DNA of 64,000 nucleotides from Eledone cirrhosa (Eukaryota): NCBI GenBank assembly GCA_964016885.1, contig OZ024744.1, positions 75,206,001 to 75,270,000 on the forward strand, read 5' to 3'. The position numbers and the translations under genes are program-made. How positions within the stretch are numbered: the stretch's first letter is position 1; each line of letters opens with the position of its first letter. This document shows positions 1,614 through 52,547 of the stretch, piece after piece. Below the pieces are notes generated by a model. It searched no databases, was not told the origin of the DNA, and saw only the letters and a list, made by a program, of their open reading frames with translations.

Positions 1614-1790
1614 ATTCATTATATTAAGGATAAATAGTGAGTCATGTTACGCTGGAGTTTCAACTATTTATCACAGGGTCCATTTGTTAAGCAAGCGAAA
1701 CTCCAGAGAAAAAAGACTCACTATTCAGCCTTAATAAAATGAATATTAAAAATCTACGTCGGTATTGAGTACTCTTTTCTATCAGTCCCC
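1614..1790 (+). mobile_element. Short fold-back pLTR-like element
   Basis: Arms about 1614-1661 and 1697-1744; the right arm begins at GAAACTCCAG; tail contains ATTGAGTACT at 1764-1773. Confidence 0.6.
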
Positions 1791-1893
1791 AAACACACAC
1801 ACACATACACACACGCACACACACACACACACACACACACACACACACACACACACACACACACAAACATATATATATATATATATATATATA

Positions 1894-2516
1894 TCTGTAT
1901 ATTTATAAAAATGTAGTTTTCTGTATGTGTGTGTATGTGTGTGTGGATAAGTTTTAATGAGGGCTCATATATTCTAAACCATTCATGCTATTTCTTTGAA
2001 ATCTTTTACAGAGCTTTTCCTTGCACAAAACTTGTACATGATCTACAAAGGCTTTCAAAAATCGATATTGGGGCCTTTGGAGATATTAAACAATTTCGGT
2101 TATGTGTGTCAATTTTCGTGATTAAGTAAGACAATAGTTATAATTCGTCAATATTTCGTGAAGTAAGACAAGAGTTATCTTTCGTCAGTACAATTTTGAT
2201 GTTGTCAAAAAGTTTTGTTTGGGGATTTTGATTATTACAATTCGGCTCATTCGGATTTTACTTTACTCTTTGTACTTGAAACAAAAGGTTTTACTGTTGT
2301 CAAAAAAATGTATACCTAGACTGGATTTCTGTTGTTACATGGGATAACGCATGACACCGAGCTCACATATTAATTATTTCGCTGGAATAGTGCCTAAGGT
2401 TTTCATATTTACATAAAGTACGTTTTTCTTCTATGTATTCAAATTTATTGTGTTTAGTTTAATGAGCTACATCGAAAGCTACTTGAACCGTCCAAAGGAC
2501 GGGCTACTTTAGCTAG
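1894..2516 (+). mobile_element. Non-autonomous Helitron
   Basis: Starts a|TC followed by TATAAAA and (GT)-rich sequence; ends with hairpin CCGTCC-aaa-GGACGG (2488-2502) and CTAG|t. Confidence 0.65.
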
Positions 2517-2698
2517 TATATATATATAAATATATACACATACATATATATATATATATATATATATATATATATATATATATATATATATATATATATA
2601 TATATATATATATATATATATATATATATCTGTGTGTGTGTGTGTGTGTGTGTGTGTGTGCGTATTCAGATTTACTAGTGCTCATGCAATAGCGTGTT

Positions 2699-2740
2699 AC
2701 TCTGGTGTTTCCTCTGTTCACATCAGGCTCCTCAGAGAGT
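2699..2740 (-). ncRNA. Hammerhead-like motif with degenerate cleavage triplet
   Basis: Minus strand reads ACTCT-CTGAGGA-GCCTG(atgtgaa)CAGAG-GAAA-CACC-AGAGT; stem I is perfect but no canonical NUH. Confidence 0.45.
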
Positions 2741-47778: not shown

Positions 47779-49061
47779 TCCTCTTCCTGCTATATCAAAC
47801 GTTAACCTAATATATATCCCTTCCATATACTGTACCGATTGTGTTGTTATTTCTGTTTACCTTTTATGTATATATATATATATAGAGAGAGAGAGAGAGA
47901 GAGAGGGGAGGGATATATATATATATCTGTGTGAGAGAGAGGCGGGTGAGAGAGGGGGTGAGAGAGAGAGAGAGAGAGAGAGAGAGAGAGAGAGAGAGAG
48001 AGAGAGAGAGAGAGAGAGAGCAGGAAGTCGGTATCTGAAAGATATGAAGTACGGTTCTTAACTCCATCTCCATCTATGAGGGATATTTATCCGATTTTCT
48101 TGGCTATTTATAACAACCAAATTTATTTTTTACAGCAACTTATTTTGTATCTGAATTTCCCTACATTAACGATGAACCTCATAATCCCTCAATGCTTCGA
48201 AGGTTCTAAGCATACACACACACACACACACACACACAATCACACGCACACATATACACATACACGCAGTACACACCCACACACTTACACACACAAACAC
48301 AGACTTACGCACACTCACACACAAACATACATACACACAGACACACACATACTCACACACAAACACACACATACACACACGAACACATGCACACAGACAC
48401 AGACACACGCAAACACAGACAAGATCAAACACTCACACACACACACACACTTACACATTCACACGTACACATAGACACACTGAGACACTTACACACATAC
48501 ACATACACAAATTTACACACACACACACACACACACTTACACACACAAACACTGAGACACTTACACCCGCAAACACATACACACACACACACACACACAC
48601 ACACACATACACACACACATACGTACACACACACACACATACACACATACACACATACACACATCTCTGACGCCACGTCGTTATGACGAGTTTGTGCTGC
48701 AAGATGTGTTAATGTCTGCTTGTACCGATATATAAGGTATTTAGCAATGTTTTCTCTTAGCTAACAAGTGGTGGACCATAAATTTATGTTCTTTTTCCCA
48801 GTCTTTTGATCTTAGTCAAAACTATACTTTTTTTTATTATATATGTATCTAAATTAGTTTCTTTCCTCACATATTCTTATTTTCTTGTTATCGTTTTTCT
48901 CTTTTTCTTTTCTCTTTTACTTTTCATTTCACAAGGCAAATATATGTGGTGTATAAATGTATGTTTGTTTGTCTTTATGTATGTGTTTGAACAGAAGTAT
49001 AAATCTACAAATTGACAATCATATTCTGTGACATATACCAAAACCTATCCACATTCATACC

Positions 49062-49155
49062 AGATACGAACGTTTCGTTAGTTCTGAGAACCAACTTGTT
49101 CAACCTGTGCAGGTTGAACAAGTTGGTACTCAGGGTTAACGAAACGTTCGTATCT
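49062..49155. repeat. Palindrome containing GAAACGTT in both arms
   Basis: AGATACGAACGTTTCGTTA...CAACCTG-TG-CAGGTTG...TAACGAAACGTTCGTATCT. Confidence 0.8.
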
Positions 49156-51099
49156 TATATGGGGCCGTTGTAGTAACTGGCCTTAATAATTATATATATA
49201 TATATATGTATATAGTATATATATATAGTATATATCTATCTATATATATATATATATATATATATATATATATATATATATATATATATATATATGTTAT
49301 GGTATATGTTATGAAATACTGTTAGCTTCTCGCTACAACAATTTCTATACTTTTCATTTATATATATATATATATATATATATATATATATATATATATA
49401 TAAGGTTTTGTTCTTTACAAGTTCATTCCATAATTAATCGAGTGAGTAATGTGTGCAATCGAGATTATAGTTGATATTTTATCCTCATCAATATATATAT
49501 ATGTATATATATATATATATAGATATATATATGTGTGTGTGTGTGTGTGTGTGTGTGTGTGTGTGTGTGTGTGTGTGTGTGTGTGTGTGTATATACAAAT
49601 GAGAGTACAGCATATTCGAAGCTCGAGCTGCAGCTAAGCCGACAAATGCCTCCAACAGTGCAGCCAAACTCAGTTTTCAGAAGATCCCGTTAAGGGTGAA
49701 AGCAGCGATTCTTTGCTTAAACTTTAATCTGTTATTTTAATAAATATTTGCTCTACGGTTCTTATATATTTGATATATATTTATCCTTATCGAGGCCTCT
49801 TTGGATTTTAGTCTTCAAATTTATATATATATATATATATATATGTCGGGTCACTCTTGAGTGCTACTGGTAACATGTAACCCAGTACAACCTGTCCCGT
49901 GGTCAGGTCGTCGTCGACTAAACCGGCAACCCCACCAAGTTTACTTGGTGAGGCATTCTTCTAGGAGAAGGCAACTCAGGAAACTGGGATAACTCCGATA
50001 TCAAACCTGCGGCTCAGTAGTTACCGATGATATTGATATTTTCTTCTTTTCGGGTTAGAGCTACTGTCGCTCAGAGAGTGGGATTGGCTCAGTGCACAAT
50101 CTTTCCTCACTTTAAAACATATCTTCACGCACAGGCATTGCACGATAGAATTAATAATTATTAATAATGGTATATCGTGAAATGGCCATACTCGATAACG
50201 AGGATGCAGCCATCATATATATATATATATATATATATATATATATATATATATATATATATATATATATATATATATATATATATATATATATATATAT
50301 ATATAAAGTAAGTCCATAGTATCATTAGATAAAATATAAACAGTATTTCTTCTCCCAATCAGCATAAATCAACGACACAAAATACCATTTAAACGAGGCT
50401 ATAAGTTTAAAATATACTTATGAAGAAACAATAGATAAATGATATAGCTTCTTATCCGCGACTTATAAAAATTTACCTAGTATTTCTAGTAGCCTGTAGA
50501 ATTTGACTAGACATATAGTTAACCATACATAATTAGGTACAAAAAGTTAGAAGAAATGATGTACATAAACCTTACCAAAATCATCAAAATATCTCTACCC
50601 CCTGTGGTTTCATTCCATTTTTTGATATATCCGATCTTGGATAAATCAACGAGGTTTGGAAATTATCAGGAGATAACTCAATTGGACAAAGATTTTTCTT
50701 ACATGATCCCCGCATGAAACGAATTCAAAATGGCTAAGAATCATCAAGTGGCCGGTAGTCAAGGCAGAAAGTTTGTGATTGGTGCCTGTCGGCGAGTAGG
50801 CTGGTTGCTAGAAAGCGCAGCCGAATAGTGTCTAAAATTTTACTCAACCTTACGGGAGTATATAAAATTTAAAGGGTATATACATATAAACTAAACAAAG
50901 TCATATCTATATATGTATATATATATGTTGTTGGCAACTATTCACGGTGTGGCTCAATGAAGAATTAATTAAATAATTAATAATCAGAGCAATATATAAA
51001 AAGTAAGTCCATAGAATCATTAGATAAAATATATACAGTATTTCTTCTCTCAATCAGCATAATATATATATATATATACACACACACAAATATATATAT

Positions 51100-52280
51100 A
51101 TATAAACATATATGTATGTATACGTACATACATATATGTATACAGACGTACAGTAGTATGTATATACATACATGCACACATATATGGGTTTATCGAACAT
51201 TTAGTATAATGCTTGTTTTGTTTGTAAACAAACAGCCCGAAATTATTAGCCGTACAGTGTTCGGCAACCATCGTTGCCCTTTTGTTCAACACTGACAAAG
51301 GAACGATGAACTAGTTTCTAGTTTATTAGCTGTCATCAGCACCGTATACCTTCCTGTCAGTCGATCGAACGTTTGAAAGTATATACTTTCCTTATGCATA
51401 TTAACGGCTGAGCAGCCTAATTTGCATATCGGGTGAGTTAGTCGGCCGGGTGTACCCAAAACGATAAATGGAAAAATGAAATTTCATTTTTAACTTTTAG
51501 TACGGCTGATACTTTTTAAATATAAGTATGTATACGTACATACATATATGTATATAGACGTACAGTAGTATGTATATACACCCATACATTCACATATATA
51601 TATATATATATATATATATATATATATATATATATATATATATATGTATGGGTTGAACATTTATTATAATGCTCGTTTTGTTTGTAAACAAACAGACCGA
51701 AATTATTAGCCGTACAGTGTTCGGCAACCATCGTTGCCCTTTTGTTCAACACTGACAAAGGAACGATGAACTAGTTTCTAGTTTATTAGCTGTCATCAGC
51801 ACCGTATACCTTCCTGTCAGTCGATCGAACGTTTGAAAGTATATACTTTCCTTATGCATATTAACGGCTGAGCAGCCTAATTTGCATATCGGGTGAGTTA
51901 GTCGGCCGGGCGTACCGAAAACGATAAATGGAAAAAATGAAATTTCATTTCTCACTTTTAGTACGGCTGACACTTAAATATAAGTATGTATACATACATA
52001 CATAATTGTATGTACGACTGTACTGTACGGCTAATAATTTCGGGCTGTTTGTTTACAAACAAACCGAGCATTATAATAAATGTTCGGTAAACCCATACGT
52101 ACATATATATATATATATATATATATATATATATATATATATATATATATATGCTTGCATGTATGTATGTATATACATACTACTGTACGTCTGTATACAT
52201 ATATATATGTACGTATACATACTTATATTTAAGTATCAGCCGTACTAAGAGGGAGAATGAAATTTCATTTTTTCCATTTA
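51100..52280 (-). mobile_element. Tandem 460-bp units each with a hammerhead, plus an inverted partial copy
   Basis: 51195-51510 repeats at 51655-51970; hammerheads at 51303-51345 and 51763-51805 read ACGGTG-CTGATGA-CAG(ctaataaa)CTA-GAAA-CTAG-TT-CATCGT; 52022-52280 is inverted; a fragment also lies at 17636-17760. Confidence 0.85.
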
Positions 52281-52547
52281 TATAAATATACATATATATA
52301 TATACATATATATGTAGGAGGTGAGTTTTATTGTAGCACAATAAAGCAATGCAAATATCGGATTATTAGCACTCAACAGTTTATAGGACTGGAGTATAAA
52401 TAATATAAAATCATTCTTCCTTACCTTCTCTTTCTCCCTTCCTTTCCTTTTTTCCAATCTCATATATCGCTCTAATTTTATTTTTCTTATGTTCATTTGA
52501 GACTTCTCTGTTCGCAAATCTTTTTTAAGCTTCATATCATGTCCCCC

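Follow-up and report, generated by a model that had tools for sequence, protein, structure and literature searches.

In a 64,000-nt stretch of the Eledone cirrhosa genome (GenBank assembly GCA_964016885.1, contig OZ024744.1, positions 75,206,001 to 75,270,000 of the forward strand), here called the window and numbered from its first letter, a motif resembling ATTGAGTRCT recurs beside microsatellites. We found that this motif comprises one arm, the 3′ one, of a small bulged hairpin together with its flank, that a complementary arm lies upstream and, judged from sequence, that the hairpin is a cis element of the Hydra clade of Penelope-like elements (PLEs). The hairpin occurs twice in complete junctions, as H1 and H2, and we propose, with a probability of about two in three, that these twin hairpins are docking sites in the RNA and determine the start points of reverse transcription. 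How the reverse transcriptases (RTs) of PLEs, the sister group of telomerase, pick internal starts, and why these elements have a tail and inverted ends, has been addressed by one in vitro study. The Hydra clade, its hammerheads, its TA targeting, its tails and its inverted pseudo-long terminal repeats (pLTRs) are already known. A literature search that included the closest papers, with figures, Repbase notes and most subscription papers outside it, found no description of a twin hairpin with a UA patch. We regard the hairpin as real: a cis element, apparently not described before, that belongs to a known clade and leaves a strong footprint in the genome.

A bulged hairpin beside (TA)n tracts

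The motif or a near form of it was present at 15/15 of the sites listed in a first-pass annotation of the window (that at 26333 being a looser variant), and each site lay 20-62 nt from a microsatellite and was oriented toward it. ATTGAGTRC matches away from microsatellites, which that annotation had omitted, lie at 30582, 61352 and, on the minus strand, 32565. The host genome is a 3.0-Gb animal genome rich in (TA)n. We measured enrichment in an unbiased sample of 77 independent 10-kb stretches (770 kb). Among sense RTYGAGTRC matches within 300 nt of a (TA)n block, 51 of 60 fell at 40-69 nt from it; two antisense matches fell at that distance, and none was found at 40-69 nt from the 305 CA/GA block ends checked. 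End-anchored clustering reduced 933 TA-junction ends to 630 clusters, from each of which one random copy was drawn. The collapsed set held 8.1 sense matches, compared with 0.62 in dinucleotide shuffles (maximum 3 in 100) and 2.2 in antisense. Nine clusters (about six families by eye) carried the motif, and 0/400 permuted motifs reached six clusters. The enrichment of position and orientation near (TA)n thus persists once copies are collapsed, and these results support the earlier suggestion of a conserved cis signal common to diverged families. The accompanying statement that the surrounding sequences do not align holds mostly between families, where 5/120 flank pairs were significant at p<0.01, and fails within lineages, since the 15 sites represent about nine of them: 18477, 30396, 47512 and 34731 belong to one family (A), 18267 is its relative, and 37439 and 37601 are tandem copies to which 13291 is related.

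The hairpin follows the pattern NCUC-Y-[variable stem-loop]-R-UY-GAGN′-RCU, also written RCUCY-[variable stem-loop]-R-UY-GAGY-RCU; two bases bulge out on its 3′ side. An upstream NCUCY arm accompanied 49/56 motif matches near (TA)n compared with 10/40 elsewhere. In those 49 copies the Y-R pair, which the search left unconstrained, was U-A in 31, C-G in 15, C-A in 3 and U-G in none. The first base of the motif, A or G, changes with its pairing partner. Upper stems differ wholly in sequence and in length (4-39 nt), and loops of 28-39 nt exist in this genome. Loops of RNA type occur on the sense strand, namely UUCG in family F1764 and GNRA in the window's H2. Relatives of the armless-looking copies at 1764, 6204, 18267 and 28891 have intact 5′ arms, and the 26333 family carries a variant with a one-base bulge. 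An Rfam scan of the sites gave no credible family among the best 150 of 262 matches; what matched was microsatellite-driven miRNA noise plus one tRNA-like hit (18678-18748, minus strand, 44.7 bits), possibly the head of a short interspersed element. A coding role, with the motif read as Ile-Glu-Tyr, was ruled out by its position upstream of the start codon, and a splice site or branch point was rejected as a poor match to the consensus that leaves the pairing unexplained.

Insertion ends and carrier elements

Complete tandem junctions run hammerhead-H1-H2-ATG, the ATG being that of a Hydra-type open reading frame (ORF), with H1 and H2 about 78-130 nt apart in this genome. The two-hairpin pattern had 1009 genome matches, compared with 187 for a reversed control. 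Inserted copies stop short of a hairpin by 2-10 nt, the short end lying before H1 and the long end before H2; both ends fall at a TA-like patch, which each hairpin has 6-8 nt ahead of it. Of the 117 TA-abutting ends that six families gave in the unbiased sample plus the window, 115 belonged to the H1 (short) class or the long-end class, and the long end lies just before H2 wherever H2 is known. In the three largest families, the modal start of (TA)n is at -6 to -10, 3-6 bases are shared with the element, and the microhomology ends at -2 to -7. Head-to-head insertions almost always join one short and one long arm (31/32 in the unbiased sample, 88/90 over all loci, and 32/32 by a two-class rule), whereas independent arms would give about half long-plus-short pairs. 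Long-end copies lack H2 and short-end copies lack H1, so it must be the template, and not the new copy, on which the signal acts. We found no pile-up of 5′ truncations at the hammerhead cleavage site in three families; most copies continue past the hammerhead, which agrees with a template that is uncut or circular.

The motif first noticed is H1 in long-end copies. H1 marks the end 5′ of itself and not the one 40-60 nt to its 3′ side; that other end is marked by H2, which is not copied into most insertions, and the distance of 40-60 nt from the junction is that from H1 to the start site that H2 would set. Among the functions suggested earlier, recognition by an RT or end formation fits best, although the signal is not a linear 9-10-mer, and an antisense promoter finds no support, as the hairpin sits on the hammerhead/ORF strand.

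A minimal type I hammerhead precedes most sites by 50-130 nt on the same strand. A hammerhead core with stems was predicted in families A, F29292 and F52368, in F1764 relatives, in N1-N3 and, with a variant core, in the L144 family; from sequence, the core was incomplete in F37439 and none was found in F6204. Four of the roughly nine lineages are linked to Hydra-clade ORFs. F29292 has such an ORF upstream, and downstream too in tandem 3822-bp units; F28891 is linked through relatives; family A is linked by the N terminus only, where junction copy L313 reads into a Hydra-type N terminus; and F26333 is linked by the C terminus only, a Hydra-type ORF preceding the family end in L132. The single ORF, of 713 codons in L352 and at least 686 in L141/L144/L151, encodes an RT together with a GIY-YIG endonuclease at its C terminus, a domain call based on motifs and by-eye likeness to Hydra-1_Obim. 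The two Hydra-type proteins tried (L352, L356) had no Pfam match at E<0.01, although the candidates scored included 475 relatives at E<=1e-40, and the Hydra clade may be under-annotated.

As far as the published description goes, Hydra-clade ORFs combine a C-terminal GIY-YIG domain with RW(K/R), DKT, CxCX5C, CxxC and CxH motifs and lack CCHH (PMC8557442). The hairpin carriers match: RWR (RWK in N1) and DKT instead of DKG occur in L352, L356 and L364; the L352/L144 protein and N1 (L362) have the CxCX5C linker, CxxC and CxH beside the catalytic E and N, and no CCHH; and C-terminal CxxC and CxH are also present in F29292. Insertion into (TA)n, another trait of the clade, is shared. The usual length of less than 3 kb is not, since the F29292 unit measures 3822 bp and that of the L144 family about 3260 bp, owing to long 3′ untranslated regions (UTRs); in the text available to us that length is a tendency only (PMC8557442). 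RT identity is 41-70% among carrier families and about 20-30% to Neptune-type RTs. For Neptune, one of the clades with which comparison had been suggested, the hairpin pattern occurred in 0/27 Neptune-type ends (CCHH endonuclease; a handful of families from 30 loci, of which 3 without a microsatellite boundary were left out), and a GIY-YIG Pfam search yielded mainly Neptune-type elements in which the motif was absent. Naiad identity, which implies an N-terminal endonuclease and no canonical hammerhead, was rejected, the linked ORFs having C-terminal endonucleases and hammerheads. The Naiad_Mmer consensus in the supplement of PMC8557442, the portion consulted, has one bulged-hairpin match in its 3′ UTR, about 400 nt from the end, that may be chance.

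The hairpin extends beyond this genome. A profile of 104 proteins led to 77 metagenomic loci; of 63 upstream windows, the 56 that were at least 120 nt long formed 41 families with proteins about 40% identical to the local one. At least one hairpin anchor was found in 39/41 families and at least two in 30/41, compared with shuffle means of 2.2 and 0.1, the best member having been taken per family, which slightly favours real data over shuffles. Thirteen families also scored antisense, likely because the 3′ arm plus flank is partly self-complementary. The common form is GCUCY...R-UH-GAGC-ACU-N-U; the Y-R pair (n=70) is U-A in 22, C-G in 38, U-G in 3, C-A in 1 and other in 6, and 65/87 upper-stem positions are paired compared with 33 in shuffles. 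H1 and H2 are 55-83 nt apart, and the ORF mostly starts 15-34 nt after H2. The TAT/ATA peak is at -8 to -6 (25, 30 and 21 of 61, compared with 2-11 elsewhere), which coincides exactly with the insertion ends mapped in this genome. Among curated consensuses inspected by eye, the hairpin is present in Hydra-2_Amil (coral), in Hydra-1_Ajap, with two copies at its start, and in Hydra-2_Ajap (sea cucumber); Hydra-1_Crog and Hydra-1_Obim have variants, and it is not clear in Hydra-1_Amil.

A candidate start signal for reverse transcription

We propose that a read-through (or circular) RNA across a tandem junction would carry both H1 and H2, and that two RT-endonuclease molecules would bind them. The nicked (TA)n target strands would anneal to the UA patches, where two cDNAs would start and run outward from both sides of the break. 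The cDNAs would then be joined head to head, or one would go full length, and the resulting inverted arms would differ by the H1-H2 spacer, the Penelope 'tail'. In its most general form, to which the sequence evidence leads us to give slightly better than even odds, the proposal is a clade-wide bipartite start signal in which a UA patch pairing with (TA)n and an RT-bound bulged hairpin are used twice, so that a single RNA would let two RTs prime the two ends of one double-strand break. If true, the bipartite signal would account for the tail, the inverted pLTRs, the microsatellite targeting and the mobilisation of retrozymes, and one small motif would unify these features in the retroelements most closely related to telomerase. 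As a 20-nt motif shared among animal phyla, with the mapped ends only a few bases away from it, the hairpin also supplies an exact substrate and mutants for work on binding, target-primed reverse transcription and structure. It further gives a simple marker of where Hydra elements, and the non-coding repeats that they mobilise, truly begin and end, and it is a candidate for the minimal signal of insertion targeted to TA.

Other RNA signals position RTs, among them the bulged stem-loop epsilon of hepadnaviruses, the template-alignment and boundary elements of telomerase RNA, and the 3′ UTR of R2. In those systems a small RNA structure to which protein binds determines where copying begins, and a short template stretch pairs with the primer. 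The likeness to the hairpin is a functional analogy, with no homology of sequence or structure claimed. Within PLEs, the Hydra clade in the consulted parts of Craig et al. 2021 (PMC8557442) agrees with our elements in ORF motifs, pLTR hammerhead, (TA)n targeting and inverted pLTRs with a tail. It differs in that its tails are 30-40 nt, compared with 70-130 nt here, and local elements are longer (3.3-3.8 kb); the local H1 often has the form ACUC/GAGU in place of GCUC/GAGC. The main text of that paper mentions no hairpin, stem-loop or bulge, and what we consulted of it ascribes the tail to endonuclease resolution, whereas we propose RT starts. In the Poseidon element PAc of Anolis, the tail is bounded by two internal sites in the RNA from which the RT begins copying, according to the portion of Frangieh et al. 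2024 (PMC11167929) available to us. By that account, start sites downstream of the hammerhead and the cutting and extension of both target strands resemble our proposal, and hammerhead cleavage is not needed, which matches the lack of a 5′-end pile-up here (PMC11167929). The PAc start, however, is described there as lying inside an AC-rich stem-loop within the ORF, without homology to the target and without a defined conserved motif, whereas the starts proposed here would lie in the 5′ UTR, each 2-10 nt ahead of a conserved hairpin of its own, at a (TA)n-complementary patch.

Metazoan non-LTR retrozymes are described, in the available text of Cervera and de la Pena 2020 (PMC7229834) and Li et al. 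2026 (10.64898/2026.07.22.740005), as short non-coding tandem units with a type I hammerhead from PLE pLTRs. That text contains neither 'hairpin' nor 'stem-loop' and names no cis signal for mobilisation. Retrozyme-like units occur here in F37439 (228 bp, L256, the junction copy in which the H2 of this family was seen) and family A (about 165 bp, L314/L316/L320), and they keep H1 together with H2 or an H2-like stretch. L315 consists of 76-bp hairpin-only repeats and, like L256, L314, L316 and L320, is a retrozyme-like derivative.

Several observations count against a start signal. Its support is a genomic footprint, made up of hairpins, covariation, a UA patch and end geometry. Several hairpins are weak, with constrained energies of +2.2 to -11.9 kcal/mol, and some would need protein for stability. 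Free folding of eight valid windows (those of L325 and L340 were excluded, as they did not include the 5′ arm) recovered the hairpin in five and nearly so in 38162, and gave other structures for the 37439 and 30396 copies. The covariation counts are not independent, H1 being mostly U-A and H2 mostly C-G: the H1/H2 combinations (n=28) were U-A/C-G in 16, C-G/C-G in 11 and C-G/U-A in 1. The basal pair is A-U or G-C, with a qualifying arm lacking in 1/26 representatives that had been picked under the pairing rule. Counts of G-U and A-C do not by themselves choose the RNA strand (the first upper pair in metagenomic families is G-U in 3 and A-C/C-A in 7). Among families, no H2 was found for F38162, F52368, F1764, F6204 or F26333, that of family A is a degenerate match only, and no ORF was linked to F37439/13291, F38162, F52368, F1764 or F6204. 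The two end classes were set with wide windows (22 and 16 nt), and the short ends of F28891 lie farther off, 11-20 nt from H1.

Fixed ends 5′ of each hairpin are also what would be expected if the hairpins, as single-stranded DNA, as a cruciform or through the partly palindromic GAG-YR-CTC, directed cutting of a DNA intermediate by the GIY-YIG endonuclease to the TA patch, the ends then reflecting cleavage and not initiation. The patch resembles the endonuclease target, resolution by the endonuclease is the origin that Craig et al. give for the tail in the parts consulted (PMC8557442), and the Penelope endonuclease needs the tail for recognition, as cited in the available text of Frangieh et al. 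(PMC11167929). That same text reports Poseidon tail ends that match measured RT start sites. The palindrome is moreover imperfect, with the last C in 35/63 hairpins while its partner G is fixed, and a usual centre of CA; and the UUCG and GNRA loops are of RNA type, on the sense strand. We consider cleavage unlikely. A core-promoter or translation element appears distinctly improbable, although the TATA-like patch, an initiator-like CACT, a TAT about 24-35 nt before the A of ACT and the nearness of H2 to the start codon invite it, and TATA and initiator-like sequences are reported for other Penelope pLTRs in the sections of PMC3846280 consulted. A strict TATA box is found in 6/61, and TAT is tied to the 5′ foot of the hairpin more than to the ACU flank (sd 1.8 nt, in a search window set from the 5′ foot, which favours this result), its distance from ACT rising with loop length (rho 0.89). 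The long loops of this genome also speak against a promoter, and the covariation, the two copies and the ends before each copy are left unexplained by it. The hairpins may nevertheless have a dual role, as promoter or translation element plus start signal.

Priming on (TA)n could be accounted for by the UA patch alone, with the hairpins serving RNA packaging, dimerisation or protein-driven activation of the hammerhead, and minimal PLE hammerheads have been proposed to act as dimers or with protein help (PMC4209133 and PMC11167929, in the portions available). UA-rich stretches are common in AT-rich ends, yet nearly all ends fall at two hairpin-linked places, and the distance from patch to hairpin is constant across families; we judge this division of labour very improbable. 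Least credible, with hardly any probability left to it, is the reading of the motif as a relic of common ancestry, or as a chance pattern that has been multiplied by a small number of abundant families. The collapse of the window's sites into few lineages and the large share of copies supplied by few families fit it, but the enrichment holds at family level, flanks and loops have diverged while the arms remain paired, and the pattern recurs in diverged metagenomic families. As a full explanation it is refuted by the family-level enrichment and the metagenomic recurrence.

Sites in the window and related repeats

Family A supplies H1 at 18465..18486 and 47500..47521 on the plus strand, a U-A variant at 30384..30405 (plus, hammerhead core 30318) and, on the minus strand, 34731..34752 in the long arm of the head-to-head insertion 34700-34856, whose other arm is short. 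A decayed H1 of its relative lies at 18267..18295 (minus), the 5′ arm being intact in relatives. In the stretch 18226-18529, a pair of long arms meets head to head, each arm from a different subfamily within the family A lineage, possibly by a template switch between RNAs or through two insertions. The F29292 insertion 29030-29359 carries H1 with its RCU flank in the C-G variant at 29279..29301 (plus) in the long arm, downstream of a hammerhead core at 29173, and its short inverted arm (29030..29080, minus) stops just before H1. F37439 has H1 at 37422..37448 (plus) in the long arm of the insertion 37301-37493, with the short inverted arm at left, and in a second copy at 37584..37610 (plus); a relative has it at 13291..13317 (minus). 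A satellite of 58-bp units, each with H1 and a UA patch and F37439-like, gives at least 100 matches over about 9 kb at G000:C1:14234978-14243738 and beyond (L283-L312), and it dominated a pattern search at short H1-H2 spacing.

The H1 of F38162 (38135..38171, plus) has a long upper stem and a folding z of -4.0. F52368 has a C-G variant at 52368..52395 (minus) in a long arm, paired with a short arm bearing a hammerhead (52556) on the plus strand; in its second copy (29563..29580, plus) only the 3′ arm of H1 remains, the 5′ arm having been lost at the inversion junction. Decayed forms of H1 occur in F28891 (28848..28900, plus, with a long upper stem), whose relatives L277, L353 and L364 have H1, H2 and a Hydra-type ORF, and in F1764 (1751..1773, plus), in whose relatives the 5′ arm is intact and the loop is C(UUCG)G. 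H1 of F6204 (6204..6247, minus) has one change in the 5′ arm of this copy, and F26333 retains the 3′ arm of its variant hairpin (26333..26345, minus), with a single-U bulge in relatives, the 5′ arm having been lost at the inversion junction.

Two sites absent from the first-pass annotation have the GCUC/GAGC form. One is an H1 at 50949..50990 (minus), which together with an H2 at 50839..50859 (minus, C(GUAA)G loop) forms the only H1-H2 junction clearly seen in the window. This junction is part of a short unit (50340-51060, minus) with about 500 nt of internal sequence, a short end and no ORF match; among relatives of the unit, the base of H2 is A-U or U-A. The other is an H1-type hairpin at 35299..35320 (plus), with (TA)n at a distance of 51-54 nt. 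A long-stemmed hairpin that fits the pattern, with an H2-like stretch about 95 nt on, occupies 32440-32614 (minus); it is remote from microsatellites and has no ORF match. Adjoining the short unit, 51060-52270 (minus) contains two tandem hammerhead-bearing units (cores 51799 and 51339) that lack the hairpin described here. The head-to-head Penelope-like insertion at 990-1549, with hammerheads at 1179 (minus) and 1301 (plus) and one short and one long arm, likewise lacks it and may use a different twin signal.

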